NCBI GenBank assembly: GCA_964635715.1
Contig: CAZWNZ010000003.1
Span: forward strand, 37,153 to 101,152
Direction of reading: 5' to 3'
From: an uncultured Gammaproteobacteria bacterium
GTDB lineage: Bacteria; Patescibacteriota; Microgenomatia; UBA8517
DNA: 64,000 nucleotides
This document shows positions 11,452 to 58,920 of this stretch, in pieces. The notes beneath the pieces were generated by a model, which saw only the letters and a program-made list of their open reading frames with translations, ran no database searches and was not told where the DNA came from. The translations under genes were made by a program, and so were the position numbers. Numbering within the stretch: the first letter of the stretch is position 1; every line of letters starts with the position of its first letter.

Positions 11452-13081
11452 AGTTGGTAATTAAATTATTGTAGTCGGTCAGGTTGTAAAATGTTCCAAA
11501 GTTTTCTTTAATTAAGTTAAAATCACTAATATTTACGTGGCTATCGGCGTCAAAATCGCCAGTAACAATTCTTTCTTTAATTCTTGAAATAAATATGTCT
11601 AAATCTGCTTTAGTAATTGCTGTATCCGGGCAGAATTTTGCCGGATTGGCAGAGCAGCCGCTGGTAATTCCCAATTTGGCGAAAAGTTGAACGTATTTAA
11701 ATAGAGGGTGTGTTTGGGGAACGTCTGCAAATTTCGGCGATGAATCGGTGATATTGGGCATATATCTTGCAATTCTAAGTAAATATGTAGCGGCTTCAGC
11801 TCTGGTTAAAGTATTATTAAGGCAAAACTTAGCCGGGTTAACATTGCATCCTGTGGTTATTTTATTTTTATAGAAAGTTTCCACGGCCTGGTAGAAAGGA
11901 GATGTGGCGGGCACGTCAGTAAAAGTGGGTGAGTTGGGGATAATTGTTTGCATGTTAAATTGTTCAGTTAAATAATAAGCTGCTCTGCCACGGGTAAAGC
12001 TATTTAAGAGTTTTGTAATGACACCAACTACCTTTTTTGGGGTACCATTGTTATTGTATATACCAAGACCCACATCGGCACTTCCATTTGCGCAGTTATT
12101 TGGAGACTTTAAGGATGAGTATCCCCAAAGACTGAACCCAAAATTATTATTTATTGCGTAATTAATCAAAAGTCTGTCTGTTTCCGCTTGAGTGTCCTCA
12201 TTTCCGTATTGTGGACATGAGCTTGCTCCGAACTCGCCAAGAATGAGCGGCGTGTTGGGATAATATTTTTTGTAACGGCTTACTTGTTGATTCATTTCAT
12301 TAATAACTTGCGACGCGTTTAAGTTTCTTTGTACAGTGCCGTAATTATTAAAACTAAGAAAATCAAATGAAATTGGGTCTTCAATAGGTAAAATGCTTTT
12401 TGATAGAGGAACTGAAAGTTTGTCAATTAACGAGTCATCGTGATATCCGATCAAAAACTTGGACCTCAACTCAGTGGGTAATCTTTTAGGCAAGCTACCC
12501 AAGGTGGGTCGCAAAAGAGCAGCATGAGCCTCAGGTGAATAAGGGGAAACTATTGTATTTGTACCTTCAGTAAACAATAGAATATAAACAGTGTCACTAT
12601 ATTCGCTGATACGGGTTAAGAATTCTTTCATATATGATTCAAAAGCAGCGTATTGGACGGGGTCTTTGAGCCACGAATCGTCATTTATTCCGATAGGGTG
12701 GGACCGTCCGTCATTCCCGCGACCCCAAAGATAATTCATCGGAAGAATTGCTTTCATGTTATTTGCCTTTAGAAGAGCCAATGTGTTCTTCAAATTTTCA
12801 AAATTTTGGTCATTATAAATCGGAGTTGGTAAAGCTTGAGGTTCAAATTTACTCCAAACCATATAAAGCCACACAGTATTAAAACCGGCTGCTTTGATTT
12901 TTTGTAAGTTTGCGGGCAAAGTTGTCCAAGGAGTTTGATAATCTCCTGTGCTTCCGGGAAATGCGTAAGCTACACTCCTGATATTCCAATAAGGGAGACT
13001 ATTTGTTTGCGCGTTGATGGTCGATTTTAAAGTTGTTAAAAAAAAGAGGGCTAAGAATATTGCAAATAGAACCTTTTTCAT
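11441..13081 (-). CDS. secreted GH5-like glycoside hydrolase with two SLH-like repeats and a C-terminal dockerin-like repeat
   Basis: Signal peptide; GH5-type catalytic motifs (LFTEGTN acid/base region, LILGEFG nucleophile); SLH-like repeats paralogous to the neighbouring gene; C-terminal GDFDADSHVNISDFNLIKENFG matching the dockerin Ca-binding repeat DxDxDGxVNxxD. Confidence 0.55.
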   Translation of the reverse strand: MKKVLFAIFLALFFLTTLKSTINAQTNSLPYWNIRSVAYAFPGSTGDYQTPWTTLPANLQKIKAAGFNTVWLYMVWSKFEPQALPTPIYNDQNFENLKNTLALLKANNMKAILPMNYLWGRGNDGRSHPIGINDDSWLKDPVQYAAFESYMKEFLTRISEYSDTVYILLFTEGTNTIVSPYSPEAHAALLRPTLGSLPKRLPTELRSKFLIGYHDDSLIDKLSVPLSKSILPIEDPISFDFLSFNNYGTVQRNLNASQVINEMNQQVSRYKKYYPNTPLILGEFGASSCPQYGNEDTQAETDRLLINYAINNNFGFSLWGYSSLKSPNNCANGSADVGLGIYNNNGTPKKVVGVITKLLNSFTRGRAAYYLTEQFNMQTIIPNSPTFTDVPATSPFYQAVETFYKNKITTGCNVNPAKFCLNNTLTRAEAATYLLRIARYMPNITDSSPKFADVPQTHPLFKYVQLFAKLGITSGCSANPAKFCPDTAITKADLDIFISRIKERIVTGDFDADSHVNISDFNLIKENFGTFYNLTDYNNLITNYGK

Positions 13082-13394
13082 GAGTGAAAATCTAATTTAT
13101 ATATTAACACATCCGGAAAAAATAAATAATCATAGGCAATACACCGATAACGACAGGGCTAACCTTTAAAGCTTGTTACATAATACTAAATACAATTGGA
13201 CGATTTTTCATATCCTGCTTTCTTTGCTTCTTTCTCAGTACAAAACCACTCTTCTCCTTTATATTTTTCGATAATGGATAGATTGTAGAGCCTGCATTCC
13301 GACATGGTGTATTCTTTATTTTTTGTATTTTGGATAATATTTCCTTTGATTGTGCACTGCGGCAATCTTTGTTCTTAAAGATGTTTTTCTCTTT

Positions 13395-14039
13395 TTAGAA
13401 GTTTGCTTTGCCATTTAGTCCTAAAATAATTTCTTCGGAGTTTCCTATTGGGATTCTGACAAAAAATCCTTTTCCGTTAGGAATAGGTAGGGAAGTCTCA
13501 CCTTTTAATCTTCTTTTGATTCCCTCAATTTCTATTTCTGCGGTTCTTTGTTTTCCAAAATCGGAGATTTGTTTTTGTCCGAGTTCAATTTCAAAAAAGT
13601 AAGAGGAAGAATCAACAATTTTTATTTCGCTTCCGGCGGGTGTTACAAAAATTCCCGCAACTAGGTCACTGTCATCAATTATTATTCCGTCGACAGGGGA
13701 AAATAGCGTTGTCTGGTCGAGCACTGCCTTTGCAAGTTCGACGTCTTTTACAGACGCGTTAAGAGTTGCTTGCTTTTCCGTTCTTAAATATTTATCTATA
13801 ACTTCCTTCGGGTCAGGATATTTTTGGGAAAATATTTCAAAGTCTGCCCTCACTTTTTCAAAGTCGGCAAGTTGTTTATCGAGACTTGTTTGAAGTATTT
13901 TTCTATCGAGTGAAGCAAGTATGTCTCCTTTTTTAACAATATCTCCTGTGTGTTTTTGAATAGAAACAACTTTTCCTGAAATTGCAAAACGCACTGAAAC
14001 AATTCGAGCCTTGACACCACCTTTGTATGTCTTTGACAT
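13395..14039 (-). CDS. HlyD-like membrane-fusion/periplasmic adaptor family protein (short, no signal peptide)
   Basis: Lipoyl-like half domains (VVSIQKHTGDIVKKGDILASLD ... LFSPVDGII) flanking a coiled-coil, then a beta-barrel-like C-terminal part. Confidence 0.45.
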   Translation of the reverse strand: MSKTYKGGVKARIVSVRFAISGKVVSIQKHTGDIVKKGDILASLDRKILQTSLDKQLADFEKVRADFEIFSQKYPDPKEVIDKYLRTEKQATLNASVKDVELAKAVLDQTTLFSPVDGIIIDDSDLVAGIFVTPAGSEIKIVDSSSYFFEIELGQKQISDFGKQRTAEIEIEGIKRRLKGETSLPIPNGKGFFVRIPIGNSEEIILGLNGKANF

Positions 14040-14111
14040 TCTAGTCTAATTTTAGATTATCACAATTTTGAAGATGAATAAAATTTCCAATCTTTTTATT
14101 GTCACGACTGC

Positions 14112-14540
14112 TTAAATAAAATCCAAAATTCCTTCGGGATATAAAATTAATTTTCCGTTTTTATAATCGTCGATATTCTGCCAGGAGGCAATTCCTCCTT
14201 CGTTTGAGTCAAGAATCTGTAGCTCAGTTTTTTCATACAAATCTTTGTTTACAAGATCTCCTTCAAAAACCATTAGTATTTCATGCCCATTTTTGCCTTC
14301 GTAGGTAAAAATGGTTTCTAGCGTTGTTATAAATCTCACGTTTTTCAGATTGGTTCCCAATTCTTCCTGAAACTCGCGTCTTAAAGCCGCCTTTGCTCTT
14401 TCTCCGAATTCAATTCCACCTCCAAGAAGACGATAAAAAGTTTCTTTTTTAACAGAATCAAATCCGACTCCGGCCAAAATCTTTTCTTTGTGTTTAATAA
14501 TACATACCGCCAAAGGTCTTATGGCATTTTCTTTTAGCAT
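14112..14540 (-). CDS. NUDIX hydrolase
   Basis: Nudix box GGGIEFGERAKAALRREFQEELG. Confidence 0.75.
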   Translation of the reverse strand: MLKENAIRPLAVCIIKHKEKILAGVGFDSVKKETFYRLLGGGIEFGERAKAALRREFQEELGTNLKNVRFITTLETIFTYEGKNGHEILMVFEGDLVNKDLYEKTELQILDSNEGGIASWQNIDDYKNGKLILYPEGILDFI

Positions 14541-14629
14541 ATGAAATATTCTATCACCAATTTGGAAGATAATTGCCTAGCCTTTTTGCACATGTGGATA
14601 CAATCCACAAAATTATCTAAAGTATTATA

Positions 14630-15073
14630 ATGAATTTTATGAAACGGGTGGTGCAAAAAGTAATTGCCGGAGTAGCCCTCGAAAACGGCGGTAAAATTTT
14701 AATTATTCAAAGAACGGCGAATGAAGATATCTTTCCAAATCTTTGGGAACTTCCGAGCGGGAAGAAAGAACCAATGGAAAAGATTGAAGAAGCTGCAAAA
14801 CGCGAAGCCAAAGAAGAAACAGAACTTGAAGTCAAAATAGGTAAGCCAATTAGTGTTTTTAACTTCGGTTGGGAAAAAGAAGATGAAATAAGAGATGCTA
14901 CGGAAATAGTTTTTCTGGCAACTTTAGAAGGCAAATCTGAAGTTAAGCTTAGCGACGAACATCAAAACTTTGCATGGGTGAATAAAGAGGAAATTGAAAA
15001 TTACAACGCTTCAAAAGAAACCAAAGACGTGGTTAAAGAAGCTTTGTCTAATCTTCCAAAGATCAATCCCTAA
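14630..15073 (+). CDS. NUDIX hydrolase
   Basis: Nudix box PSGKKEPMEKIEEAAKREAKEETELEV. Paralog of 15856..16299. Confidence 0.75.
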   Translation: MNFMKRVVQKVIAGVALENGGKILIIQRTANEDIFPNLWELPSGKKEPMEKIEEAAKREAKEETELEVKIGKPISVFNFGWEKEDEIRDATEIVFLATLEGKSEVKLSDEHQNFAWVNKEEIENYNASKETKDVVKEALSNLPKINP

Positions 15074-15285
15074 TTTTTCTATATTTTCTCTAGTTATCCT
15101 TCAAAAAACATTTTGTCTTTTATAAGTTAGATTATTGCAATGATGGCATATTATTAGTCTTTCCGAGGAGTTTCGGTTATGAAGCGCCCTACTTAGCTAA
15201 ACATCATGGTCTAGGACTCTATAACCCCATAACCAATTATCAACCCATTATTTTTTAATAGTTCCCTGGGGAGAATAGGTAGAAG

Positions 15286-15792
15286 TTAGAAATCTCCCGG
15301 AAATATATCGATAATTTTCGCCCTCAATTTTCTGTTGGCAGCTTCATACTCAACTTCTGCTCCTTTTACATGACCTAATAGTGCTTTACCCAATGGAGAT
15401 TCATATGATATGGAATCATTTTGAAAGAGAATTGCATCAGCTGACCCTAATATGTTTGCTCTGAATTGTTCTCCGTATGTCATAATCTCCACATGAACAA
15501 GGTTTCCGATCTGTGCCGTATCAGTTTCCTTTCGTCTTTCAATGAAAGTGGGACACATTACAGCCTGGCGCCATTGTTCGAACAAAATACCAGTGACGTC
15601 AATCTTTCTATTAGCTTCATCAAAAGCTGCGTTGTCATGAAAATCATTTGTTCCACCAGCAACGCCCAACTCTTTATGTTGTTCGACAAGTTCGTTTGCT
15701 ATATAACCAAACTTTTGTTGAGCTGCGTCGTAAGCACGCCTAGACATAATACCGGAAAGGACTTCAATTTTTCGTTCTCTGCTCATATTCAA
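15286..15792 (-). CDS. GreA/GreB-family transcription factor paralog
   Basis: C-terminal YESPLGKALLGHVKGAEVEYE GreA FKBP-like domain. The N-terminal tip reads NDFHDNAAFDEA instead of the canonical DLSENAEY. Confidence 0.6.
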   Translation of the reverse strand: MNMSRERKIEVLSGIMSRRAYDAAQQKFGYIANELVEQHKELGVAGGTNDFHDNAAFDEANRKIDVTGILFEQWRQAVMCPTFIERRKETDTAQIGNLVHVEIMTYGEQFRANILGSADAILFQNDSISYESPLGKALLGHVKGAEVEYEAANRKLRAKIIDIFPGDF

Positions 15793-15855
15793 AGTGATAT
15801 TCTACCAGAAAATACAGTATTTGAAAATCACAAGAGTCTTGATACAATATGACTT

Positions 15856-16299
15856 ATGAGTAGTAAAAAAATCGTTCAAAAAGTAGTCTTAGGAGGCGTC
15901 GTTTTTGATAAGGGACAGAAGTTTCTAGTAATGCAAAGAAATGAAAATGAGGATATTTACCCAGGTTTATGGGAATTGCCAAGTGGTAAGAAGGAAGAGT
16001 TAGAAGATGCTGAAGCCTCACTTTTGAGAGAAATTAAAGAAGAAGCAGGTATAGATGTAGAAATCATTTTGCCTGTTTCTATTTTTAATTATCAGATCGA
16101 AAAAACGGAAGAGATTCGTGATTCAACCCAAATTAATTTTCTGGTCAAAATGAAGCGTGATCAGGAGGTTCATATTAGCAAAGAGCATCAAAATTTTGCT
16201 TGGGTAGGCAAAGACGAACTGAACAAATACAATTTTTCTGATGCAACCAAAAGGGTTTTGCTAAAAGCATTTGAAATTTTGGAAAAGTTAAATATTTAA
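15856..16299 (+). CDS. NUDIX hydrolase
   Basis: Nudix box PSGKKEELEDAEASLLREIKEEAGIDV. Confidence 0.75.
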   Translation: MSSKKIVQKVVLGGVVFDKGQKFLVMQRNENEDIYPGLWELPSGKKEELEDAEASLLREIKEEAGIDVEIILPVSIFNYQIEKTEEIRDSTQINFLVKMKRDQEVHISKEHQNFAWVGKDELNKYNFSDATKRVLLKAFEILEKLNI

Positions 16300-16856
16300 T
16301 GAAAATCTTATTTGATTTTTCAAGACAAGGTATCTCACAATATAATTCTGCCTTCGAAGAGATTAGAAAAAGTATTCTTGAAAATGGCCACTTTTTAACT
16401 AATGATTTACTTCAAGAAACTAAAAAATTGGGTAAAACGCTCCCCCAAGAGGCCTTTAATAAATTAAGAAAGGCAATTTCCGAAGCTGATGCAATTATTA
16501 TTGAGGGATCAATTGTAAGTATGAGTTTGGGATATATTGTTACAGAATCCATTAATTTGGGGAAGCCTGTACTTTTCCTTTCTGATGGACATCTTAAAAA
16601 CCATAAAAACAGATTCTTGATGTCGATTAAATCGAAACTTTTATATGTTGAGGCTTATCATGATGTTCACCAATTGCGTCCAATTGTAGTAAGGTTTATG
16701 GAAGAGTGTCCCAACATTAAAACACGTTTTAATTTAGTACTTAGTAATAAGTTGGACAGCTACATTATTAAACGCAGTAAAGATCTAAATATTTCGAAAA
16801 CGGAGTATATTGTTGATTTAATTGAAACGGACCTACAGAAGAATATAAAGGATTAA
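16299..16856 (+). CDS. nucleoside 2-deoxyribosyltransferase-like (SLOG-like Rossmann) domain fused to a C-terminal ribbon-helix-helix
   Basis: EADAIIIEGSIVSMSLGYIVTESINLGKPVLFL resembles the NDT family motif. The C-terminal RFNLVLSNKLDSYIIKRSKDLNISKTEYIVDLIE has an RHH (CopG/Arc) beta-alpha-alpha pattern. Its start overlaps the stop of the preceding Nudix gene. Confidence 0.35.
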   Translation: MKILFDFSRQGISQYNSAFEEIRKSILENGHFLTNDLLQETKKLGKTLPQEAFNKLRKAISEADAIIIEGSIVSMSLGYIVTESINLGKPVLFLSDGHLKNHKNRFLMSIKSKLLYVEAYHDVHQLRPIVVRFMEECPNIKTRFNLVLSNKLDSYIIKRSKDLNISKTEYIVDLIETDLQKNIKD

Positions 16857-17776
16857 ATTCTTATTTTATTTCCTGCCACTAGATTTTTTATCGCCACCTC
16901 CACCATTTTTTTGTTCGCTTCTTCCGTCATAGAGGCAATATGTGGAGAACCGATAAAGTTTTTTTGCTTTATCATGCTTTTCTTTATTTTGGGCTCGCTT
17001 TCAAAAACATCAGAAATATAAAATAGACTTTTACTTTTTAGAAGCGGGATAATAGCTTTTTCTTCTACAATGGCGCCGCGTGAAGTATTGATTAAAATTG
17101 TTCCCTTTCTGATTTTTTTGAGATTTTCCTGATTAAATAAATGATATGTCTCTGTTGTCAGTGGAAGATGTAACGAAATTATATTTGAGTTTTTGAGCAG
17201 TTTATTGATTGAACAGAATTCCAAATCATCTGTCAAAAATGATTTTGGATCAACATAAGGATCGTAAACTAAAAACTTATTACAATCAAAAGCGTTTAAC
17301 TTTTTATATACCAATCGTGCGATATTACCGAATCCCACAAGACCTATCACCTGATTGGACATTTCTTGCCCCATATACTTATATCTGTTCCAATTAATCA
17401 AATCGGATTCATTCAAAAGGTTGGTTTTTCTAAGTGCTGATAATGCTTGACAAACAACATATTCAGCTACGGCGTTTGAATTAGCACCGGCAGAATTGTA
17501 AATGTCTATTCCCCGGATTTCACACGAATGGATATCTATATTGTCCACACCTACCCCGACTCTAACAAGGTGCCTTAAATTCGGAAGTTTATTTAAAACC
17601 GAAGTGTCAACTTTTGTGTAACTCCTTACGATTAATGTTTCAATATTCGGAGAATAATTAACGCCTATTGTTTTATCGCCTTTAACTATTTTATAACCGG
17701 CACACTTAAGCAATTTTGACTCTCCATTTAAATAAATTTCATCAGGCTCGCTTATATATGCAATCTTTTTACTCAT
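16853..17776 (-). CDS. D-isomer-specific 2-hydroxyacid dehydrogenase
   Basis: NAD-binding GLVGFGNIARLV and the catalytic-domain layout of the family. Confidence 0.8.
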   Translation of the reverse strand: MSKKIAYISEPDEIYLNGESKLLKCAGYKIVKGDKTIGVNYSPNIETLIVRSYTKVDTSVLNKLPNLRHLVRVGVGVDNIDIHSCEIRGIDIYNSAGANSNAVAEYVVCQALSALRKTNLLNESDLINWNRYKYMGQEMSNQVIGLVGFGNIARLVYKKLNAFDCNKFLVYDPYVDPKSFLTDDLEFCSINKLLKNSNIISLHLPLTTETYHLFNQENLKKIRKGTILINTSRGAIVEEKAIIPLLKSKSLFYISDVFESEPKIKKSMIKQKNFIGSPHIASMTEEANKKMVEVAIKNLVAGNKIRI

Positions 17777-17787
17777 ATTGTTGCGCT

Positions 17788-18207
17788 CTATATTCTTAAA
17801 ATTTTTACTTCACGTCTTTCCTGTCCTGGGTCAGAGCCATGAAATATATCTGCCTCGAATCCCGCATTAATCTGAGATGTTAGCGCGGAAATTTGAGAGC
17901 GAAATCTTGAACGCAATTCCAATTTCACCGTTTTTGCACGAGTTTGGCCTTCCAGAATAATTGCTGTGATAGCTGATCCGGCAATTCTGTCATAGTAACT
18001 TCCAGACCATGGATAATGAATTACATTGTTCCACAAGTCTTCAGCTTGACTTCTGGTTAAAACTGTTTGCACCTGATCCAATATGTTGGCTCCTGCAACT
18101 TCATGCAGGTTGTACCAGATTTGTTGCTGTTGTTCATTAGGCAGTAGTGTGAATTCTGGTTTAAGTATTAATACGGAGAATTGATTTTGTAGGATTGATT
18201 CTTTCAT
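17788..18207 (-). CDS. ndk: nucleoside diphosphate kinase-like protein (divergent)
   Basis: FSVLILKPEFT (cf. Ndk TFSIIKPNAV), AIILEGQ (cf. VSVLEGE) and IFHGSDPGQERREV (cf. the catalytic NGTHGSDSVESAAREI His motif). Confidence 0.5.
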   Translation of the reverse strand: MKESILQNQFSVLILKPEFTLLPNEQQQQIWYNLHEVAGANILDQVQTVLTRSQAEDLWNNVIHYPWSGSYYDRIAGSAITAIILEGQTRAKTVKLELRSRFRSQISALTSQINAGFEADIFHGSDPGQERREVKILRI

Positions 18208-18214
18208 TTATGAA

Positions 18215-19417
18215 TTAGATTGAATAATTCTTAAGAGTTTTTTTGATTATTGAAGCATATTCCTTCAGTACTTTTTTGTATTCCGGGGTATCGTATATGT
18301 CAATCGGAAATTTTATGGCATTGTTAAAAAAGTTTTCAGCTATTGGGAAATCACCTTTCTTATAATTTACCAGTCCCTTATATCCAGGATAAAGTAGGCT
18401 CGGGTCTTGGAACAACTTCAGTAAATTAAGGGGACAGGTTGAACCCGGCATGTCTGCGTCCAAAATACCATTTTCGATTAACTTATCGCAGAATTCTTTG
18501 GTGGATATTGAAATCTTTTTAGGGTTAATTTGGATAACAAATGCGTACCAACTAGGTTCCACACCGTCAATAAACGCTGGAGTTTTTATGGCCTCAACGT
18601 CTTTAAGTAACGTCGCCAAATATTTTGCATTGTTATTCATTATTTTATGCCACATCTGTAGATGGCTCATTTGCTCTTCAGCAATCGCAATGGCAAGAGG
18701 ATGGGCTCGAAGCTTTAATCCAAAGCCCGTTAATGCGTAAGGGTAATATTTGGAATCTGGAAGAATTTCCTGTTTGCATCTTTTGTTGTAGTGCCCAAAA
18801 AGTAGTCCACGTTCATAGACCTCACTGTCGTCTGTGACCATTATTCCGCCCTCACCTCCGGTAATAATTTTCTGACCCTGTAAACTAAACGCCCCAACTG
18901 TTCCGAAAGTGCCTACGAGTTTGTCTTTGTATATTGCTCCATGGGCATGCGAGACATCTTCTATGAGTTTTAGATTATGTTTTTTACAGATGGCAATAAT
19001 TTTATCCATTTCACAGGGAACACCCCACATATGAGTAACAACCAACCCTTTTGTCTTGGGGGTAATAAGTGACTCAATTTTATTCGGATCGATGTTACCA
19101 TCTTCTCTTGCGTCGCAAAGTATCGGAATTGCTCCGGTTTGAAATAATGGAGTAACTGTGGCAAAAAAAGTGTATGCCGGGCATATTACTTCGTCTCCAG
19201 GGCCAAAACCACAACCAACCATCGCAGCATGTAACGACGCGGTTCCGGAACTAAAAAGCAGGGCATATTTGGTACCATACACTTTTGCAAATTTGTTCTC
19301 AAATCTCTCAAAAATCCCTGATCTGTTATAAATAGAAATTTCCCCTTTATTTAGTTCAGTATTGACAGCCTTTTTAGTCTCTTTTGTTATATGAGGCCAA
19401 ATGTATTTGTAATTCAT
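18215..19417 (-). CDS. DegT/DnrJ/EryC1/StrS-family PLP-dependent sugar aminotransferase
   Basis: FSLQGQKIITGGEGGIMVTDD lysine-containing motif typical of the family. Confidence 0.85.
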   Translation of the reverse strand: MNYKYIWPHITKETKKAVNTELNKGEISIYNRSGIFERFENKFAKVYGTKYALLFSSGTASLHAAMVGCGFGPGDEVICPAYTFFATVTPLFQTGAIPILCDAREDGNIDPNKIESLITPKTKGLVVTHMWGVPCEMDKIIAICKKHNLKLIEDVSHAHGAIYKDKLVGTFGTVGAFSLQGQKIITGGEGGIMVTDDSEVYERGLLFGHYNKRCKQEILPDSKYYPYALTGFGLKLRAHPLAIAIAEEQMSHLQMWHKIMNNNAKYLATLLKDVEAIKTPAFIDGVEPSWYAFVIQINPKKISISTKEFCDKLIENGILDADMPGSTCPLNLLKLFQDPSLLYPGYKGLVNYKKGDFPIAENFFNNAIKFPIDIYDTPEYKKVLKEYASIIKKTLKNYSI

Positions 19418-19422
19418 AATAT

Positions 19423-20388
19423 TTATTTTTTATTTATTGCTTCGTAAATCTCTTTAATAAATTCCATGTTTTTTATATTATTTTCTTGAACATCTTTGAA
19501 TCCTGTACCACTTTTAATCCTGGTCATAAAAAAATCGAGTTGTTTATCCATCATTTCTTCTGTGTTTTCCGTGGTTATATCGTTAATCAATTCTCCCAAT
19601 TTGTTTTTAATCTTTATGTTTTTCTTGTCTCCAATCAGATGACCGTTTGATCCATGGAGACTGTAAGTTTCGATTTTTTCGCCAGTTGATCTCGACAGAG
19701 TTATCGTGCCGTTAAGGCCTGTTTTGTATCCAAACAATATCGATGCAGTGTCTTCGGTGTAAGTTCCGGCAAGTTTAGAATTTGCAAGTGCGGAAGTTCT
19801 GGCAGCGATAAAATCCGGTTTACCGAACCACCATACCAACTGATCAATAATGTGGTAACCCATATCTAAAATACATCCTCCTCCCGCAACTTCTTTATCG
19901 CCTCTCCAGCCCTCGGCTGGATTTTCGATATTTAATTTATATATAGCGTTAAAGAGGAATGGAGTACCAATTTCCGAAATTGACTCTTTCGCTTTCTGGT
20001 ATAAAGAACTAAAGCGCCTTTGTGTACAAATAAAACCATATTTTTCAAATCCTTTAATTTTGGTTAAGGTCACAGCCTCTTCATTATTTCTGGCAAATGG
20101 CTTTTCCTTCATAAAGAAGATCTTGTTTGCACAAAGAAATGCGGCAATTGATTTATATTGATCGTGAGGTACCGAGACAATGCAGAAATCAATATTTTTT
20201 ACAGGAAGATCTTTGAAGTCTCTAAAATAAGGAACGGAAACTAGATTTGGGTACATCGATTTAAAATTGGAATAAGAAGCACTGGATGGGTCACAAATGG
20301 CCACAATTTTCACATCCTCTCTCCTGATTAAGGAGGGGAGATGGTCGTTTAAGTTTTGCCTACCCAGACCAATAATTGCGACTTGCAT
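19423..20388 (-). CDS. Gfo/Idh/MocA-family oxidoreductase
   Basis: N-terminal MQVAIIGLGRQ Rossmann motif and the family's architecture. Confidence 0.8.
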   Translation of the reverse strand: MQVAIIGLGRQNLNDHLPSLIRREDVKIVAICDPSSASYSNFKSMYPNLVSVPYFRDFKDLPVKNIDFCIVSVPHDQYKSIAAFLCANKIFFMKEKPFARNNEEAVTLTKIKGFEKYGFICTQRRFSSLYQKAKESISEIGTPFLFNAIYKLNIENPAEGWRGDKEVAGGGCILDMGYHIIDQLVWWFGKPDFIAARTSALANSKLAGTYTEDTASILFGYKTGLNGTITLSRSTGEKIETYSLHGSNGHLIGDKKNIKIKNKLGELINDITTENTEEMMDKQLDFFMTRIKSGTGFKDVQENNIKNMEFIKEIYEAINKK

Positions 20389-20406
20389 AAAACCGTGTAT
20401 AATTTA

Positions 20407-20438
20407 ACAATGCGTACTAAATACGCATTGTATGCGTA
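20407..20438. promoter_or_regulatory. candidate operator: three TACGCA half-sites, CAATGCGTA-ctaaa-TACGCATTG overlapping ATACGCAT-tgt-ATGCGTAT
   Basis: Perfect 9-bp inverted repeat overlapping a perfect 8-bp inverted repeat, in the divergent intergenic region between 19423..20388 (-) and 20522..21205 (+). Confidence 0.4.
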
Positions 20439-20521
20439 TTCTATACTTGTTAAAAAAAAGTGTCAATAGATAAGAAAAAGAAGTAAAAAACAGTGGAAAC
20501 TAAGAAAGGAAAATTTTTAGT

Positions 20522-21205
20522 ATGGTTACAAAAAAATGCAAGGTATTAAAAATAAGCCCTTTTCGACTAGAAGTCGAAGGTACTGATGGTTCGGGAAAAA
20601 GCACATTGATGGATTCCTTGAAAAAATCCCTACACTCTAGATATCCCAGTAAAAGAATAGTTTGTCTGCCTGAATTTTCAGATACTCCACTTGGGTATAT
20701 GGTAGGAAATGTCATAAAAGAAAAAACTTTCTTTTCGTTAGGTGTAAAAAAATCCAACCTCCCGCTGGCAGAAACTTTATGTCTGGCCGGGGATTATATT
20801 GCCAAACTGGAGAAACTCAAGCAATGTCCCAATCCTAACCCGGATATTATTATATCTGACAGAGGCATTGCGACTTTTTGGGTATATCAAGAGATGAGAC
20901 TTAATAAAACATATCGTAATTCTGAGGATGTGTTTAAGGAATGGATGGATCACATGTTTTCTCAGATCGAACCTCCCGATCTCACAGTAATTCTTACTTC
21001 TTCTGAGGAAAGTTTAAGACAAAGATTGGCTAATCGGGGCGATAATGTTACGAATGAATCAATGAAGTTCATACTTACTGCTCAATCAAAATATATTAAT
21101 CTGGCATCCAATAATGATAATTTCTTGATTATAGAAAATTCCGATGGAAATTTACATGAAGTTGTGGAAAAAGTTGTGAGCGCAGTTGCCTGTAAAATCA
21201 GTTGA
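20522..21205 (+). CDS. thymidylate kinase-like (dNMP kinase family) protein
   Basis: P-loop LEVEGTDGSGKST (cf. Tmk IEGxDGxGKST) and a DRG(I) segment at the DR(Y/F) position. Confidence 0.6.
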   Translation: MVTKKCKVLKISPFRLEVEGTDGSGKSTLMDSLKKSLHSRYPSKRIVCLPEFSDTPLGYMVGNVIKEKTFFSLGVKKSNLPLAETLCLAGDYIAKLEKLKQCPNPNPDIIISDRGIATFWVYQEMRLNKTYRNSEDVFKEWMDHMFSQIEPPDLTVILTSSEESLRQRLANRGDNVTNESMKFILTAQSKYINLASNNDNFLIIENSDGNLHEVVEKVVSAVACKIS

Positions 21206-21510
21206 CATTATTTACTGTCAATTCTTCAATATATTTTTCGGCGATTGGAACCCTTTTTATAATCATCAATTATTGTTTTAATTAAGGGTTTGGGAAATAA
21301 GTTTTCAGACAAATTGTTTTCATAACACGCCTTTCTCCGGATAATGAAGCCAATAACTATTAGGCGCTTGGCTAAGAGACAGGGATTCCTGCCTCGAGTT
21401 GCTTTGGTCAAGGTGGGCGTACCCCGTTAGGCAGATCCAGAATCTGCAGTCCTACCCGCCTAGACTCGACAGTCTAGTCGAGGCTGGCGATTAGATGATC
21501 ATTGGCAAAG

Positions 21511-21581
21511 CTGTGGAGCTTGGATTCGGACCAAGATAACATCCTCCAGAGGGATGTGTCCTACCGTTAGACGACTCCACA
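21511..21581 (-). tRNA. tRNA-Gln (anticodon CUG)-like
   Basis: Manual cloverleaf: acceptor TGTGGAG/CTCCACA (U1:A72, G73 as in bacterial tRNA-Gln), D arm GTCT-AACGGTA-GGAC, anticodon arm CATCC-CTCTGGA-GGATG, T arm CTTGG-TCCGAAT-CCAAG. The T loop has C at position 55 (non-canonical). No encoded CCA. Confidence 0.55.
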
Positions 21582-21587
21582 ACTTTG

Positions 21588-21839
21588 CTAATGATAAGTT
21601 TTCTTAAACAGGTTCTTTAAAAACTTCCTGCCGGCGCAAGATTTTAAATATTTTTCTCTCTTTCTTGCCTCTTCTCTATTGTTAAATTTTTCTGTGTAAA
21701 TAACATTCCAGGGCATGTATCTTTTAGTATAAAAACTTTCTCCTAAATTATGTTGAGACAATCTTTCGTCAAGATTGTCTGTAATTCCTACATAACTTTT
21801 ATTTACTGTGAGACTTTTTAAAACATACACGACATACAT
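21588..21839 (-). CDS. small GIY-YIG nuclease-family protein (YhbQ-like)
   Basis: YVVYVLKS...KSYVGITDNLDERLSQHN GIY-YIG core in an ~83-aa protein. It ends 7 nt upstream of the tRNA-Gln on the same strand. Confidence 0.8.
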   Translation of the reverse strand: MYVVYVLKSLTVNKSYVGITDNLDERLSQHNLGESFYTKRYMPWNVIYTEKFNNREEARKREKYLKSCAGRKFLKNLFKKTYH

Positions 21840-21977
21840 TTTCCACAGACTAGCAGGCTTATTGTATCATCTGAAGCTGAAAATTTCTTAATATTGCTGG
21901 TGGTAGGAGGACGAGTTATTTTTAATATTTCTTAAAAATAGCTTGTCGCTACCACCTCGCTCTATGTGAAAATTATT

Positions 21978-22376
21978 TTATTGGGATGGGTAGATAACTT
22001 CTTTGCAAATTAGTAACTGAACTCGAGGATCAAATGCGATGTTTCGTGGTTTTAGTACTGATTGATCCTGGATCCTTGTTAATGAAAGCTGATTTAGCTT
22101 TCCGCAGGGGGTATTTGGATTATCAATATCCCTCAACTCTTTTGGTGAAAGATTGTATCCGTTCATATCCCTTAACAAGTATCCAAATACAGCCTTTGTT
22201 CCTCTGTTGATAGGCAAATGATTACTGAGTCGGAATAGGTCCACCAAGCATTCAGGTAGTACTCTATTTCGCGATTCAATAATTGCTGCAATTTCATCAG
22301 TCCAAAATTGCAATTGGCCAAGATAACTCACAAGCTGATCATCTTTTGGATTTATCGAGTTCAAATTAATTTCCAT
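21978..22376 (-). CDS. hypothetical protein
   Basis: Clean 132-aa ORF with no recognisable motif. Confidence 0.35.
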   Translation of the reverse strand: MEINLNSINPKDDQLVSYLGQLQFWTDEIAAIIESRNRVLPECLVDLFRLSNHLPINRGTKAVFGYLLRDMNGYNLSPKELRDIDNPNTPCGKLNQLSLTRIQDQSVLKPRNIAFDPRVQLLICKEVIYPSQ

Positions 22377-22446
22377 CCCCTTACTCTCCTTTTTGAAATA
22401 ATTTTTAGGTGCGAGGCCCTATAATACACCTTTAAATTGACAATAA

Positions 22447-22827
22447 TCAAATAAAACGTAGGATTTTAGGAAGAAAAATAATTGCCCCGACCAGGAAAGC
22501 CGCAATTGAAGAAATCAAAACCGCTCCGGCTGAAACGTCTTTGGCAATTTTGGCTTTTTCCTGAATTTCGGGACTTATCATATCCACCATTGCTTCAACG
22601 GCGGTATTTATAAGCTCCAGAATAAGTACGAAGGCAATGACAACAATGAGATTAAACCATTCGGAAACTGAAATTTTCAAAACTATACCCAAAATAATTG
22701 CGGCAACCCCCGCCAAAATTTGAACCCTGAAATTTCTGCCTTTCCTAAATTCGGTTGCAATACCCTCGAAGGCAAACCCGAAACTTTTGGCTAAAGAGTG
22801 TTTTGATTCCACACACCATGATATCAT
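22447..22827 (-). CDS. dgkA: diacylglycerol kinase (DgkA family)
   Basis: RNFRVQ, ELINTAVEAMVD and AKDVSAGAVL motifs of prokaryotic DgkA. The start is trimmed to MISWCVE; the upstream part of the track ORF is antisense to the PAP2 gene. Confidence 0.65.
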   Translation of the reverse strand: MISWCVESKHSLAKSFGFAFEGIATEFRKGRNFRVQILAGVAAIILGIVLKISVSEWFNLIVVIAFVLILELINTAVEAMVDMISPEIQEKAKIAKDVSAGAVLISSIAAFLVGAIIFLPKILRFI

Positions 22828-23305
22828 GAAATATATGGAAAGTGCTGTTCTGGAGTTCTCTGCAACATTTTTAATTTGGATTTTATACGCAAGCTTTATT
22901 GTTCTTTGGTTTGTTAATGGGCGGGTTAAAAGAGAACAAATTTTCAAGGCAATAATCGCAGGTTTGCTGGCTTGGACGATTGCCCAGGGAATCAAACTTG
23001 TTTTTCCAACACTTAGGCCATATATGCTAAATGGCGAACCTGTCGGGGTACTGATAACTCCGATCGGGTCTGCCTTTCCTTCGGCACACACTGCCTTAGC
23101 TTTTAGCTTGGCTGTTACAATTTTTTTACTTGATGGCAAGGTGGGCTGGATATATTTAAGCGCAGCTATGTTTATTGGAATTGCCAGAGTTCTTGCAAAT
23201 GTTCATTACCCGATAGACATAATAGGAGGAGCGCTTATCGGAACCTTAGTGGCAATAATTATAAAAAAAATCCAGACGCTTGGGATTTTGAAAAGGAGGA
23301 AGTAG
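22826..23305 (+). CDS. PAP2-family phosphatase (undecaprenyl-diphosphatase/PgpB-like)
   Basis: KLVFPTLRP (KX6RP), PSAHT (PSGH) and ARVLANVHYPIDI (SRX5HX3D) motifs. The start is chosen at the internal Met to avoid overlap with dgkA. Confidence 0.65.
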   Translation: MKYMESAVLEFSATFLIWILYASFIVLWFVNGRVKREQIFKAIIAGLLAWTIAQGIKLVFPTLRPYMLNGEPVGVLITPIGSAFPSAHTALAFSLAVTIFLLDGKVGWIYLSAAMFIGIARVLANVHYPIDIIGGALIGTLVAIIIKKIQTLGILKRRK

Positions 23306-23444
23306 GCGAGTTATCCCACATATCGTTCACGCCTCAAGCTGCAATTACTGCGGGACTGCGGCCGCAAGATATATAAATTATCTCACCTACCTTGACTTCT
23401 AGCACTTAATTATGTAGACTGCTAATATTGAATTTTAATCATAC

Positions 23445-26219: not shown

Positions 26220-26678
26220 ATGAAAAACAATGTGAAATTGACTCAGGAAGGGCTTATTGCCCTAAAAACTGAGCTTAAAGATTTAAGGGATGTAAAAAGA
26301 CCCAAGCTTGTTGATAGGCTCGCAAATGCCCGTTCTCAAGGAGATTTAAGCGAAAATAGCGATTATCAAAGCGCCAAAGAGGAACTTGAGTTTCTTGATG
26401 GTAGAATTGACGAGCTTGAGGAAGTCATTAAGAATGCAAAAGTTACGGCTGCGAAAAAAAGCGGCGGAGTTGACGTGGGAACAAAAGTTACCGTAAAAGT
26501 TGGCACAAATAAAGTAATTTTTAACATAGTCGGTGAATGGGAAGCCGATCCTGTGAATAAAAAGATTTCTCACGAATCCCCGCTTGGAAAGGCACTTTTT
26601 GGCAAAAAAGTTGGAGAAAAAGTAGACGTTGAAGCTCCTGCCGGGAAAGTTCAGTACGAAATTGTTGCGATTGAGTAA
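26220..26678 (+). CDS. greA: transcription elongation factor GreA
   Basis: GDLSENSDYQSAKEE coiled-coil tip and SHESPLGKALFGKKVGEKV C-terminal domain. Confidence 0.9.
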   Translation: MKNNVKLTQEGLIALKTELKDLRDVKRPKLVDRLANARSQGDLSENSDYQSAKEELEFLDGRIDELEEVIKNAKVTAAKKSGGVDVGTKVTVKVGTNKVIFNIVGEWEADPVNKKISHESPLGKALFGKKVGEKVDVEAPAGKVQYEIVAIE

Positions 26679-36848: not shown

Positions 36849-36878
36849 ATGCGTATTATAAAATGTTATATTTGAATT

Positions 36879-49164: not shown

Positions 49165-49172
49165 TAGTTATT

Positions 49173-50132: not shown

Positions 50133-50147
50133 TATAGTAAATAAAAT

Positions 50148-50408: not shown

Positions 50409-50447
50409 ATTTGACACTGGATACATGATATACTTCTTCTTAACTCG

Positions 50448-51353: not shown

Positions 51354-51355
51354 AT

Positions 51356-58909: not shown

Positions 58910-58920
58910 ATATTAAAATT

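Follow-up and report, generated by a model that had tools for sequence, protein, structure and literature searches.

Our analyses indicate that a nucleotide-sensing repressor of a new type is the most likely product of the gene at 16299..16856 (+ strand) of the window, the 64-kb stretch of DNA analysed here, its DNA binding and its ligand being predicted. The 185-aa product joins a domain of the DNPH1/nucleoside 2-deoxyribosyltransferase (NDT) fold (residues 1-137, nt 16299-16709) to a C-terminal ribbon-helix-helix (RHH) domain (residues 141-181, nt 16719-16841). An earlier note on this DNA had placed the gene in a Nudix / Nudix / GreA-like / Nudix cluster. The cluster is real, all its genes being found among the listed ORFs at the coordinates given for them, and the interpretation placed on it is partly supported: the conserved partner and likely target of the regulator would be the neighbouring GFO-DegT-NDK-like operon, not the Nudix genes.

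The proposed fusion of an NDT-like and an RHH domain was backed by profile and fold evidence. The 185-aa protein itself has no Pfam match above 0.1, and just 7 of its 46 relatives give Pfam E values, 0.006 or weaker. A profile of the N-domain matched Rcl/DNPH1 in the PDB (E 1e-4), and hhalign aligned it with rat Rcl, whose sequence was verified against 2khz, over 139 columns (99% probability, E 3.9e-18). With the AF2 model of the protein (pLDDT 88.9), the top 50 Foldseek matches of the N-domain were all DNPH1 (probability 1.0). For the C-terminal domain, modelled at pLDDT 91, the top matches were CopG, TacA1, AtaR, Arc and AmrZ at an rmsd of about 1.1 Å; like RHH repressors (Arc, CopG, MetJ, NikR) it has a beta-alpha-alpha domain, which lies on CopG/Arc to about 1 Å, and its sequence profile is in register with the FNL strand of Arc. 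Searches by sequence gave Arc at E 1.2 and CopG at 42% in hhalign, and none of the Pfam RHH models reached threshold. A CopG/Arc-type RHH domain is supported by the structural model, with weak support from sequence alone. The predicted base-facing residues of the beta-ribbon, R143, N145 and V147, are invariant in the family.

DNPH1, or Rcl, is a 2'-deoxynucleoside 5'-phosphate N-hydrolase. The 185-aa protein shares with it and with the NDT family (PF05014) the same Rossmann-like fold, with strand and helix order kept over about 139 residues, and differs in all three DNPH1 catalytic residues (Tyr to Leu, Asp to Leu, Glu to Ile/Val). The position of the nucleophile, Rcl E93, is Ile or Val in 46/46 close family members; across the superfamily it is Gln in 36/68, Ile, Leu or Val in 26/68 and Glu in 3/68. 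Leu or Phe stands at the position of Rcl Y13 and a hydrophobic residue at that of D69. The alignment register at the nucleophile is secure because two conserved anchors, the G-Y motif before the catalytic helix (GY-x) and the LGKP turn, flank it. The phosphate-binding serines are kept, S8 corresponding to Rcl S17 (46/46) and S74 to Rcl S87 (45/46), and the close family holds S8, R9, D36, E69, S74, R105, F106 and Y120 as invariant pocket residues. Lacking the nucleophile and both helper residues, the NDT-like domain cannot work as a DNPH1 or NDT; since the triad is lost and the phosphate-binding residues are kept, it is predicted to be a sensor rather than an enzyme, and a sensor-plus-RHH reading fits better than an enzymatic one. 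Some non-canonical chemistry could be supported by the invariant D36 and E69. The 185-aa protein also has its C-terminal DNA-binding domain, which to our knowledge sets it apart from every NDT or DNPH1 characterised so far.

The related loci were all collected through the regulator gene, and its most constant neighbour is an operon for a GFO oxidoreductase, a DegT aminotransferase and an NDK-like protein. Of 19 distinct loci, 15 have the GFO-DegT pair beside the regulator gene, in three orientations overall; two of the remaining four are too short for the pair to be seen. Regulator and GFO operon converge in the window and in L002, L010, L012, L015, L022 and L031-33, the regulator diverges from a single CYTH-GFO-DegT-NDK operon in L004, and L021 and L025 each have one operon, NDT_RHH-GFO-DegT. 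This linkage outlasts three gene orders and class-level divergence, and in both Microgenomates-like and Saccharibacteria-like genomes the module keeps stable synteny with genes for housekeeping and envelope sugars. Among the genes tracked by seed-based annotation, the 185-aa protein is the only recurrent module protein with a recognisable DNA-binding domain.

In the window, the operon begins with the gene carrying the candidate operator, which encodes a GFO/IDH/MocA NAD-dependent oxidoreductase (19423..20388, - strand; gene call, Pfam GFO_IDH_MocA) with weak matches to inositol 2-dehydrogenase, UDP-GlcNAc 3-dehydrogenase and sugar 3-dehydrogenases. The DegT/DnrJ/EryC1-type sugar aminotransferase (18215..19417, -; gene call, Pfam DegT_DnrJ_EryC1) has nucleotide-sugar and inosose aminotransferases as its solved relatives (E 3e-45), and its NCBIfam matches, PseC- and LegC-like, fall under their cut-offs. 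The gene named NDK-like in the earlier note encodes a highly divergent NDK homolog of 139 aa (17788..18207, -). Its Pfam NDK match (E 0.0076) is below the cut-off, but 33 of the 34 matches of its family profile are NDK structures (best E 2e-4), the alignment running through the HGS motif, and the catalytic HGSD is retained; no fewer than 10 distinct loci have the gene beside DegT. Last in the operon is a D-2-hydroxyacid dehydrogenase gene (16853..17776, -; Pfam 2-Hacid_dh_C, 145 bits), also present in L015/26 and L031-33, whose stop overlaps the regulator stop by 4 nt. Most likely the GFO-DegT-NDK-like operon acts on a nucleotide-activated sugar destined for the cell envelope, with oxidation followed by amination, the substrate being a prediction. 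A gene for a thymidylate-kinase-like P-loop kinase (20522-21205, +; Pfam Thymidylate_kin 57 bits, NCBIfam dTMP kinase 59 bits, cut-off 83) diverges from the operon across the intergenic region with the candidate operator, and adjoins the module in the window, L010, L012, L022-24 and L031-33.

The candidate operator array there (20410..20438) consists of a 19-bp palindrome, ATGCGTACTAAATACGCAT, at 20410-20428 (consensus ATGCGYA-N5-TRCGCAT) and a third in-phase half-site, TGCGTA, at 20433-20438. Its half-sites repeat every 11 bp, as for Arc tetramers, and it overlaps the -10 and the start of the predicted GFO transcript. Arc-type RHH tetramers bind half-sites in 11-bp phasing at the Arc and Mnt operators. 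The palindrome is the single match in the window, against 0.1 expected, and occurs once per locus in 23 of 33 loci (about 16 independent), with an N5 spacer in all 23; no other copies were found elsewhere in 396 kb. Every related locus that holds the GFO operon has it over the operon's promoter or leader, just 5' of the GFO start, in the interval from the promoter to the start codon of the first gene. The flanks are A in 14/16 and T in 16/16 loci, and the Y/R positions are symmetric in 12/16, with two C/A and two T/G combinations. L014 has a relaxed copy at the DegT start; L016, with no GFO and no DegT, has the palindrome 14 nt 3' of the regulator stop codon; and none was found within 12 kb in L028, which has the regulator and CYTH. 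The 6-N5-6 form of the palindrome would suit an unlinked helix-turn-helix dimer just as well.

All three Nudix genes reported within 2.2 kb scored above the Pfam NUDIX cut-off. Nudix hydrolase C (15856..16299, +; 147 aa, MutT/NudI-like; Pfam NUDIX 55.9 bits plus NUDIX_4), with MutT, RppH-like and NudI proteins as closest solved relatives, is the only conserved, translationally coupled Nudix partner of the regulator among the related loci. In 11 distinct loci it lies directly 5' of the regulator gene on the same strand, the two genes overlapping by as much as 4 nt or standing up to 16 nt apart. The junction in the window reads TAATG (stop 16297-16299, ATG 16299-16301), a 1-nt overlap and not the ATGA that had been described. 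In other lineages a CYTH triphosphatase replaces Nudix C. Nudix hydrolase B (14639..15073, +; 144 aa, MutT/NudI-like; Pfam NUDIX 70 bits plus NUDIX_4) is indeed a paralog of Nudix C (51% identity over 143 aa, E 1e-49) and lineage-specific, being missing from the equivalent position in the close relatives L031-L033. Its ORF opens at 14630; the contig gene call begins at ATG 14639, probably the true start, and TATAAT at 14626-14631 lies directly 5' of this codon. Nudix hydrolase A (14112..14540, -; 142 aa; Pfam NUDIX 46.5 bits) carries a strict Nudix box, GGIEFGERAKAALRREFQEELG, and shows no BLASTP match to Nudix B or C. It is missing from every related locus examined and is a lineage-specific gene outside the conserved module. 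The four-gene order described in the earlier note is not conserved: in L031-33, whose 185-aa protein is 74-81% identical, the GreA-like gene and Nudix-NDT_RHH are all that is kept, and neither of the further Nudix genes is present.

Between the Nudix paralogs lies the divergent GreA-family gene of the earlier note (ORF 15286-15792, -), which matches the Pfam GreA_GreB C-terminal domain (56 bits) and not the N-terminal GreA domain. Its start is likely ATG 15786, as in the contig gene call, giving 166 aa (15286..15786). The paralog scores 59.8 bits against NCBIfam GreA, far under the equivalog cut-off of 145; it retains a full-length N-terminal coiled coil and a C-terminal domain alignable with GreA/GreB, and ends in PGDF. 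The tip does lack DLSENAEY, as claimed, reading NDFHDNAAF (family motif (S/T)DWHDNAA, or more broadly (S/T/N)D(W/F)HDNAA), but acidic residues still occupy both key positions (D..D for D..E). A canonical GreA with the tip GDLSENSDY is separately encoded at 26220-26678. Gfh1 and Rnk are non-canonical GreA/GreB paralogs, and Rnk is named 'regulator of nucleoside diphosphate kinase'. The linkage of the paralog to an NDK-type gene echoes that name, and its NCBIfam matches are weak; the paralog differs from Rnk in its coiled coil, which is much shorter in Rnk. It diverges from the Nudix-NDT_RHH operon in the window, L002, L015/26, L022-24 and L031-33. The 69-bp gap between them (15787..15855; promoter scan and sequence) holds a bidirectional promoter with overlapping -35 hexamers, rightward TTGAAA-16-TGaTACAAT and leftward TTTTCA-17-TG.TAGAAT, and leaders of about 5-8 nt for both predicted transcripts. 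Footprinting against three relatives showed the promoter hexamers alone to be conserved, with no operator-like block.

Pfam also confirmed most of the nucleotide-related genes listed window-wide: five Nudix genes in all (the other two at 90-575 and 30965-31465), the Tmk-like gene, CYTH (28487-29113), His_Phos_1 (36222-36848), a 112-aa pyrophosphatase fragment (36879-37217), Maf (37214-37795) and DHH/DHHA1 (60456-61439). The supposed excess holds for Nudix genes in a modest, small-sample sense, four lying outside the module compared with three across some 200 kb from related Patescibacteria, or roughly 1 per 64 kb (Poisson P about 0.02).

The best explanation of the whole, which we favour with modest confidence, is a nucleotide-responsive RHH repressor of the GFO operon, with a Nudix enzyme setting the effector level. 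We infer that the 185-aa protein binds the palindrome and represses, and we likewise infer the identity of its ligand. The protein would be a one-component ligand-sensing transcriptional repressor. Because the triad is lost and the contacts to a nucleoside 5'-phosphate are kept, its N-domain is predicted to bind a nucleotide without cleaving it. The RHH domain would dimerise and read DNA through R143, N145 and V147; two or three such dimers, joined via their N-domains, may occupy TGCGYA half-sites 11 bp apart, covering the promoter and transcript start of the operon for GFO, DegT, the NDK-like protein and, in this genome, the 2-hydroxyacid dehydrogenase. Nucleotide binding would alter the grip on DNA. 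Nudix C, co-transcribed and translationally coupled with the regulator, would set the effector level by producing a nucleoside monophosphate from a compound with a nucleoside di- or triphosphate, for example the NDP-sugar or its NTP precursor, a role that the CYTH triphosphatase may fill in other lineages. Our best guess at the ligand is a deoxy- or ribonucleoside 5'-monophosphate, and a thymidine nucleotide is plausible because Tmk-like, NDK-like and dTDP-sugar genes are nearby. The GreA paralog would share the bidirectional promoter and nothing more, and Nudix A and B would be lineage-specific additions to a nucleotide-salvage-rich neighbourhood.

That neighbourhood could also be taken at face value, with the Nudix, NDK-, Tmk- and NDT-like proteins as housekeeping salvage and sanitation enzymes of an auxotrophic small-genome cell, an RHH domain that is autoregulatory or incidental, and a palindrome that belongs to another factor or to an RNA hairpin. 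The nucleotide-rich surroundings expected by the earlier note for a small-genome bacterium are real: the window holds five Nudix genes, Maf, CYTH, DHH/DHHA1, His_Phos_1, the PPase fragment and the Tmk-like and NDK-like genes, and close relatives put Nudix, His_Phos_1, PPase-fragment or CYTH genes directly beside the same core in varying combinations. We consider this account unlikely, given an NDT-like domain without its nucleophile and helpers, a GFO-DegT linkage that survives three gene orders at class-level divergence, and a promoter of the regulator itself that shows no conserved operator. The palindrome could form a hairpin with a 7-bp stem and 5-nt loop in the GFO leader, and its mostly symmetric Y/R combinations fit either reading. 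However, the stem is invariant and does not covary, C/A mismatches occur in two loci, the third half-site of the window is in phase and overlaps the -10, and the element in L016 follows the regulator gene, not GFO. A bifunctional protein of the PutA kind, an active N-glycosidase or transferase using D36, E69, R105 and Y120 under RHH feedback control, seems quite improbable. Its substrate would be NMP from the coupled Nudix enzyme (NTP to NMP to base plus sugar phosphate), an order that mirrors known sanitation logic, in which a pyrophosphatase acts ahead of DNPH1. The invariant pocket, the Glu of 3/68 superfamily members and the automatic UniRef name 'nucleoside 2-deoxyribosyltransferase' of one family member speak for it; the nucleophile position, Ile/Val in 46/46 close members and Gln or aliphatic in 62/68 of the superfamily, the replaced Tyr and Asp and the secure register speak against it.

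The earlier note had also raised a module that senses and degrades a nucleotide signal under its own RHH regulator. The sensor-plus-RHH part of that proposal fits, but the Nudix cluster is neither a conserved partner nor a likely target, and nothing points to defence or a second messenger. NDT/SLOG-like, Nudix and CYTH domains do recur in conflict systems, the RHH fold resembles the antitoxin DNA-binding domains of TacA, AtaR and MazE6, and the Nudix proteins match PDC-S07, a generic single-gene PADLOC candidate. An anti-phage module, with Nudix or CYTH degrading a signal sensed by the NDT/SLOG-like domain and the RHH as an antitoxin-type regulator, is nevertheless most improbable: PADLOC matches none of the 185-aa, GreA-like, NDK-like and CYTH proteins, the core has no toxin-like partner, integrase or mobile-element signature, synteny with housekeeping and envelope-sugar genes is stable, and the candidate operator lies on a sugar-modification operon.

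The nucleotide-responsive repressor proposed here has parallels among known regulators. NikR likewise combines an RHH with a separate ligand-binding, oligomerising domain, as predicted for the 185-aa protein, but its RHH is N-terminal and its sensor an ACT-like metal-binding domain, not an enzyme-derived nucleotide-binding fold. PutA fuses an RHH, again N-terminal, to enzyme-type domains in one polypeptide; these are active in proline catabolism, whereas the 185-aa protein lacks catalytic residues. B. subtilis PurR is a transcription factor whose PRT-like domain is a pseudoenzyme sensor. NrtR combines a Nudix-like domain with a winged helix (PMC2330246). The 185-aa protein would share their logic, not their ancestry: an enzyme fold that no longer catalyses, put to use as the domain for a nucleotide effector and joined to one that binds DNA, a gene beside its targets, and a regulon recognisable by comparative genomics from a conserved palindrome. 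It differs in its folds, DNPH1/NDT and RHH, and in its predicted target, sugar oxidation and amination instead of NAD or purine synthesis. For the enzymes, puromycin biosynthesis uses Pur10, a GFO-type ATP 3'-dehydrogenase, Pur4, a DegT-type aminotransferase, and Pur7, a Nudix 3'-amino-3'-dATP pyrophosphatase, the same three families in one locus. The module sequences are no nearer to these than to generic nucleotide-sugar enzymes, and the module has no antibiotic-cluster genes and is vertically conserved in Patescibacteria beside envelope-glycan genes.

The NDT_RHH architecture defines a large, so far unnamed family, of at least 1,151 50%-identity clusters. The palindrome through which the 185-aa protein appears to act on the adjoining amino-sugar operon is conserved in many small-genome Patescibacteria.

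Pfam, NCBIfam and PADLOC gave no usable assignment for the 185-aa protein encoded at 16299-16856 (+), so homolog profiles and structure prediction were required. Forty-seven full-length relatives (43 to 81% identity) were found in Woesebacteria-like, Saccharibacteria-like and other Patescibacteria assemblies, and their profile matches rat and human DNPH1/Rcl in the PDB. A broader profile aligned with Rcl, whose sequence was verified against PDB 2khz, at an hhalign probability of 99% over 139 columns. The AF2 model has a pLDDT of 88.9, and its Foldseek matches to DNPH1 chains have probability 1.0 and target-normalised TM-scores of 0.61 to 0.82. PF05014 did not match the window protein and matched 7 of 46 relatives, with a best E-value of 0.0063. 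An earlier note had described the N-terminal domain as NDT/SLOG-like. The NDT part stands, as a DNPH1 fold, and the LOG/SLOG part does not: the motif PGGxGTxxE is absent from the 185-aa sequence, where the corresponding stretch reads EGSIVSMSLGY, and no LOG family occurs among the Pfam matches or among the 50 structural matches listed, all of which are DNPH1.

The protein shares the NDT/DNPH1 fold and lacks the residues by which catalysis in the enzyme family is judged. The nucleophile, E93 in Rcl (E98 in NDT), is replaced by I80 in the window protein and by Ile or Val in all 46 close relatives; in the wider superfamily this position is Gln or aliphatic in 62 of 68 sequences and Glu in 3. Catalytic Y13 of Rcl corresponds to L4 (Leu in 40 and Phe in 4 of the 46 relatives) and catalytic D69 to L56 (Leu, Ile or Val in all 46). 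The phosphate-binding residues S17 and S87 are kept as S8 (46/46) and S74 (45/46), as is the phosphate-loop residue G20, as G11 (42/46). Because the phosphate-binding residues were kept and the catalytic ones lost, we read the N-domain as a sensor domain, predicted from the alignment to hold a nucleoside 5'-phosphate with the canonical chemistry gone.

The last 51 residues, modelled alone (pLDDT 91), form a beta-strand followed by two helices, and the top fold matches are CopG, TacA1, AtaR, Arc and AmrZ (TM-score 0.74 to 0.86, rmsd 1.0 to 1.5 Å over 42 to 46 residues), with E-values of only 0.06 to 0.3 because the domain is short. Sequence-only tests were weak: the PDB profile search placed Arc at an E-value of 1.2, in register with its FNL DNA-reading strand; Pfam gave scattered weak matches in a few family members (RepB-RCR_reg, TacA1 and NikA-like); and hhalign against an approximate CopG sequence gave 42% probability. 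The RHH assignment is a probable one that rests mainly on the fold search. Together, the profile, hhalign and Foldseek results and the C-terminal superposition bear out the fusion of NDT and RHH domains proposed in the earlier note. Residues R143, N145 and V147 are invariant in the family and align with Q9, N11 and R13 of Arc, and are expected to be the base-facing residues of the beta-strand.

An exhaustive HMM search retrieved at least 1,151 clusters (50% identity) at an E-value of 1e-3 or below, and 413 at 1e-10 or below, nearly all of them 180 to 215 aa long and matched end to end. The NDT-RHH architecture is a large family that is unnamed and unannotated; its members are entered in databases as hypothetical or under the automatic name 'nucleoside 2-deoxyribosyltransferase', which is probably wrong for them. 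Three tandem paralogs of a distant superfamily member occupy 2.6 kb in one locus (L017:3981-6561), beside type IV pilus-like and methyltransferase genes and with no Nudix or DegT gene, and in another locus the main copy has a second, distantly related paralog 2 kb away (L024:3537-4103). Both cases suggest that this architecture has expanded into a family of regulators in certain Patescibacteria.

Gene neighbourhoods were counted over 19 distinct loci. In 11 of these, a MutT-like Nudix gene orthologous to Nudix C of the window (15856-16299, +, 147 aa) lies immediately 5' of the regulator gene on the same strand, the two genes overlapping by up to 4 nt or lying up to 16 nt apart (the window, L031-L033, L002, L010, L012, L014, L015/L026, L022-L024 and L027). 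The window junction, given in the earlier note as an ATGA overlap, reads TAATG instead, an overlap of 1 nt. In five others (L004/L013, L006/L008/L020, L009, L011 and L028) the place upstream of the regulator gene is taken by a divergent protein of 174 to 176 aa with no Pfam match and negligible BLASTP similarity to the CYTH protein of the window. A four-sequence profile of this protein matches the CYTH triphosphatase NE1496 (E-value 5e-15), and we identify it at the profile level as a CYTH triphosphatase.

Fifteen of the 19 loci have a GFO/IDH/MocA and DegT gene pair next to the regulator gene, and three arrangements occur: convergent in most, divergent as a single CYTH-GFO-DegT-NDK-like operon in L004, and within the same operon in L021 and L025 (regulator-GFO-DegT-cytidine-deaminase-like). 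Of the other four loci, L014 has DegT only, both genes are missing from L016, and L027 and L030 do not extend far enough to show the pair either way. In the window, the GFO-DegT-NDK-like-2-hydroxyacid dehydrogenase operon runs from 20388 to 16853 (-), and the regulator stop codon overlaps the stop of the convergent 2-hydroxyacid dehydrogenase gene by 4 nt; a terminator scan between the convergent genes found none. Frequent though not constant neighbours are the NDK-like, Tmk-like, GreA-like, 2-hydroxyacid dehydrogenase and cytidine-deaminase-like genes. The NDK-like gene falls under the Pfam cut-off (E-value 0.0076), and its family profile matches NDK structures in 33 of 34 cases (best E-value 2e-4), with an invariant HGS motif and HGSD kept. 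PDB and NCBIfam matches for the substrates of GFO and DegT were generic and under the cut-offs. Linkage to Nudix and GFO-DegT was rejected as a property of the whole superfamily and is specific to the subfamily of the window, since the distant L017 and L019 loci have unrelated neighbours.

Several further genes were seen around the module. In Saccharibacteria-like loci, the cytidine-deaminase-like gene (L006:6506-6952 and L021:3530-3949) either overlaps the regulator or DegT gene or lies after it; it has a CAE...PCGNC motif, scores under the NCBIfam cytidine deaminase cut-off, and adds one more nucleotide enzyme to those recruited by the module. A divergent pair at 36222-37217, about 15 kb from the module, consists of a His_Phos_1 gene and a truncated inorganic-pyrophosphatase-like gene (112 to 114 aa), and in a close relative this pair adjoins Tmk-like and Nudix genes (L031:6833-8311). 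A nucleotide-sugar block at 48172-54746 and 58199-63659 encodes an epimerase, an NTP_transferase (RmlA-like), a 4,6-dehydratase, RmlC and RmlD. The 4,6-dehydratase has 640 aa, of which about 300 at the C-terminus are additional and unmatched in Pfam, and RmlC/RmlD are followed by two GT2 and two PMT_2-type membrane glycosyltransferase genes with a DHH/DHHA1 gene interleaved.

All ORFs named in the earlier note were found in the window, whose G+C content is about 36 to 40%, and each item in its window-wide list of nucleotide genes was recovered by Pfam or, for the NDK-like gene, by the family profile. Nudix A (14112-14540, -, 142 aa), Nudix B (14630- or 14639-15073, +, 147 or 144 aa) and Nudix C score 46.5, 70.2 and 55.9 bits against PF00293 (cut-off 21.1 bits), and the genes at 90-575 and 30965-31465 score 66.7 and 65.8 bits. 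The strict Nudix box (GX5EX7REUXEEXGU, including the catalytic glutamates) is present in Nudix A, Nudix C and the latter two; in Nudix B (14639-15073) the box reads GKKEPMEKIEEAAKREAKEETE, with RE..EE intact and the last Gly changed to Glu. No NCBIfam equivalog assigned a subfamily, all scores for MutT, NudI, NudG, NudB and RppH being well under the cut-offs (for example, 53 against 148 for MutT and 54 against 95 for NudI). Nudix B and Nudix C are MutT/NudI-like and 51% identical, in agreement with their proposed paralogy, and BLASTP relates Nudix A to neither.

Relatives 74 to 81% identical in the 185-aa protein share a core of GreA-like, Nudix-regulator, 2-hydroxyacid dehydrogenase-NDK-like-DegT-GFO and Tmk-like genes and have neither Nudix A nor Nudix B, so the three-Nudix cluster is lineage-specific. 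The conserved module contains one Nudix gene only, Nudix C, and the survey did not uphold conservation of a Nudix-Nudix-GreA-like-Nudix-NDT arrangement. Other nucleotide hydrolases abut the core in these relatives (Nudix, His_Phos_1, a PPase fragment and CYTH), and for this reason the nucleotide-metabolism neighbourhood claimed earlier is real, though loosely organised. The claimed excess of Nudix genes is present but modest, with four extra in 64 kb of window as against about three per 200 kb outside the module in related loci.

The GreA-like protein (15286-15786, -, 166 aa) matches the GreA_GreB C-terminal domain PF01272 at 56.3 bits (cut-off 26.9). Its N-terminal region has no match to PF03449 but is alignable with GreA coiled coils: the alignment spans the full protein length, and the NCBIfam greA model aligns to residues 16-163, with a best score of 59.8 bits against an equivalog cut-off of 145. 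The tip reads NDFHDNAAF and has Asp at both positions aligned with D41 and E44, which we take to be the acidic tip of E. coli GreA within DLSENAEY; the alignment with the E. coli reference is approximate. The canonical loop is replaced, as the earlier note held, and an acidic residue is kept at both positions. The family is marked by a (S/T)DWHDNAA tip and a C-terminal PGDF. At 26220-26678 (+) the window encodes a canonical GreA, which matches both Pfam domains and has a GDLSENSDY tip, so that the organism has a standard Gre factor besides the cluster paralog. Directly downstream of the GreA-like gene, two close relatives encode a 68- to 70-aa protein consisting of a Gre-type coiled coil only (L031:636-842, -, and L032:2721-2933, -), with tips GEWHDNSAW and NDWHENSAW; the 212-bp window gap at 15074-15285 contained no ORF or remnant of this gene.

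Comparison of the regions upstream of GFO yielded the palindrome ATGCGYA-N5-TRCGCAT as a candidate operator, at 20410-20428 in the window. Its core occurs once in the 64-kb window (20411-20427) against 0.1 expected with one mismatch permitted, and exactly one copy is present in 23 of 33 loci (about 16 independent), with no further copy in 396 kb of loci. The spacer is 5 nt without exception, and a flanking A (14 of 16 loci) and T (16 of 16) extend the symmetry. The palindrome is invariably preceded by a TTGACA/TATAAT-type promoter and followed by the first start codon of the GFO-DegT operon. In L016, which lacks GFO and DegT, it lies 14 nt past the regulator stop, before an uncharacterised gene and then a UbiA-family gene, and L014 has a slightly degenerate copy at the DegT start. 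Arc-type RHH tetramers bind short half-sites phased at 11 bp, and the window has a third half-site (20433-20438) that keeps to this phase and overlaps the -10 box. Near-invariance of the operator across class-level divergence fits the invariant R143, N145 and V147 expected to read it.

Other upstream regions gave simpler results. The bidirectional promoter between Nudix and GreA-like genes, aligned over four relatives, holds conserved -35 and -10 hexamers only, with no palindrome or other block, and 17 upstream regions compared by eye showed TATAAT-like boxes only. Autoregulation through the palindrome was rejected, the regulator's own promoter being without a conserved operator. An Rfam scan of 13000-23500 gave a single match, a tRNA at 21511-21581 (-) with 55.6 bits. 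The -10 boxes of Nudix B and Nudix C lie 7 to 9 nt from the ATG (14626-14641 and 15843-15858), and the GreA-like gene has a predicted leader of 5 to 6 nt (15786-15805). Given these short distances and the lack of a visible Shine-Dalgarno sequence, the three mRNAs look leaderless or nearly so; regulator promoters in CYTH-type loci have a similar appearance. A perfect extended -10 (TGTATAAT) at 20397-20404 (+), just inside the GFO 5' end and directed toward the operator and the Tmk-like gene (20522-21205, +), is kept in the alignment of the three closest relatives. This -10 may belong to the promoter of the Tmk-like gene, in which case transcription would begin at the operator.

We propose that the 185-aa protein acts as an RHH repressor that senses a nucleotide and controls the GFO-DegT-NDK-like(-2-hydroxyacid dehydrogenase) operon. 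The folds, the lost catalytic residues, the gene linkage and the conserved, constantly placed operator are observed; that the protein pairs with this operator, that its control is negative and that its ligand is a nucleotide are what we infer. Since the operator lies within the shared intergenic region, the divergent Tmk-like gene may be under the control of the protein too. The operon would most plausibly oxidise and transaminate a nucleotide-activated sugar, a reading that fits the envelope-glycan genes of related loci (polyprenyl-phosphate sugar transferase, glycosyltransferase, GlmS and GtrA genes, and polyprenyl synthetase or UbiA genes in others) and the dTDP-rhamnose-type genes that the window holds along with glycosyltransferases. 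From a nucleotide compound bearing two or three phosphates, the coupled Nudix enzyme (or CYTH, in the lineages that have it instead) would produce a monophosphate suited to a DNPH1-type pocket, and expression of the operon would be tied to nucleotide supply or product accumulation.

It is possible that the genes are a housekeeping salvage cluster and that the palindrome is unrelated to the regulator or is an RNA hairpin. Its variable positions are symmetric in 12 of 16 loci, which is expected of a DNA palindrome and an RNA stem alike. Speaking against this reading are the invariance of the stem sequence, C/A mismatches in two loci, the third in-phase half-site over the -10 box in the window and the placement of the element 3' of the regulator gene in L016. 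An active enzyme-repressor resembling PutA is disfavoured by the missing catalytic triad. A defence or second-messenger module finds no support: PADLOC gave nothing for the 185-aa, GreA-like, NDK-like and CYTH proteins and only the generic Nudix candidate PDC-S07, and such a role conflicts with the stable, vertically conserved synteny.

A further reading would have GFO, DegT and Nudix act on the ribose of the nucleotide itself and not on a hexose nucleotide. Pur10, Pur4 and Pur7 make 3'-amino-3'-deoxy-ATP and -AMP; in a similar route here, substrate would come from the Tmk-like and NDK-like kinases, and the dead DNPH1-fold RHH protein would sense an aminonucleoside monophosphate. We consider this very unlikely; if true, Patescibacteria would carry a vertically inherited, repressor-controlled pathway for amino-modified nucleotides.

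Each component part of the proposed nucleotide-sensing repressor system belongs to a known family or is a variant of one (Nudix, Gre, the DNPH1/NDT fold and RHH). A literature search gave nothing relevant on an NDT/SLOG and RHH fusion, its operator or Nudix proteins in Patescibacteria. The closest analogy it offered is NrtR, which joins a pseudoenzyme sensor to a DNA-binding domain (PMC2330246). The 185-aa protein is alike in this logic to NrtR and to PurR, and is predicted to resemble NikR and Arc at the DNA level. The significance lies in CPR biology and annotation, with no new principle involved. Patescibacteria are uncultured, with tiny genomes and few recognisable regulators, and to our knowledge almost nothing is known of transcription control in this group (CPR). 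The analysis provides a concrete predicted triplet of regulator, operator and regulon, conserved in Microgenomates-like and Saccharibacteria-like lineages. By this prediction, the DNPH1/NDT fold would be added to the few enzyme folds that transcription factors have taken over as nucleotide sensors (NrtR and PurR), and the proposed circuit would link nucleotide pools to envelope amino-sugar synthesis in organisms that depend on scavenged nucleotides.
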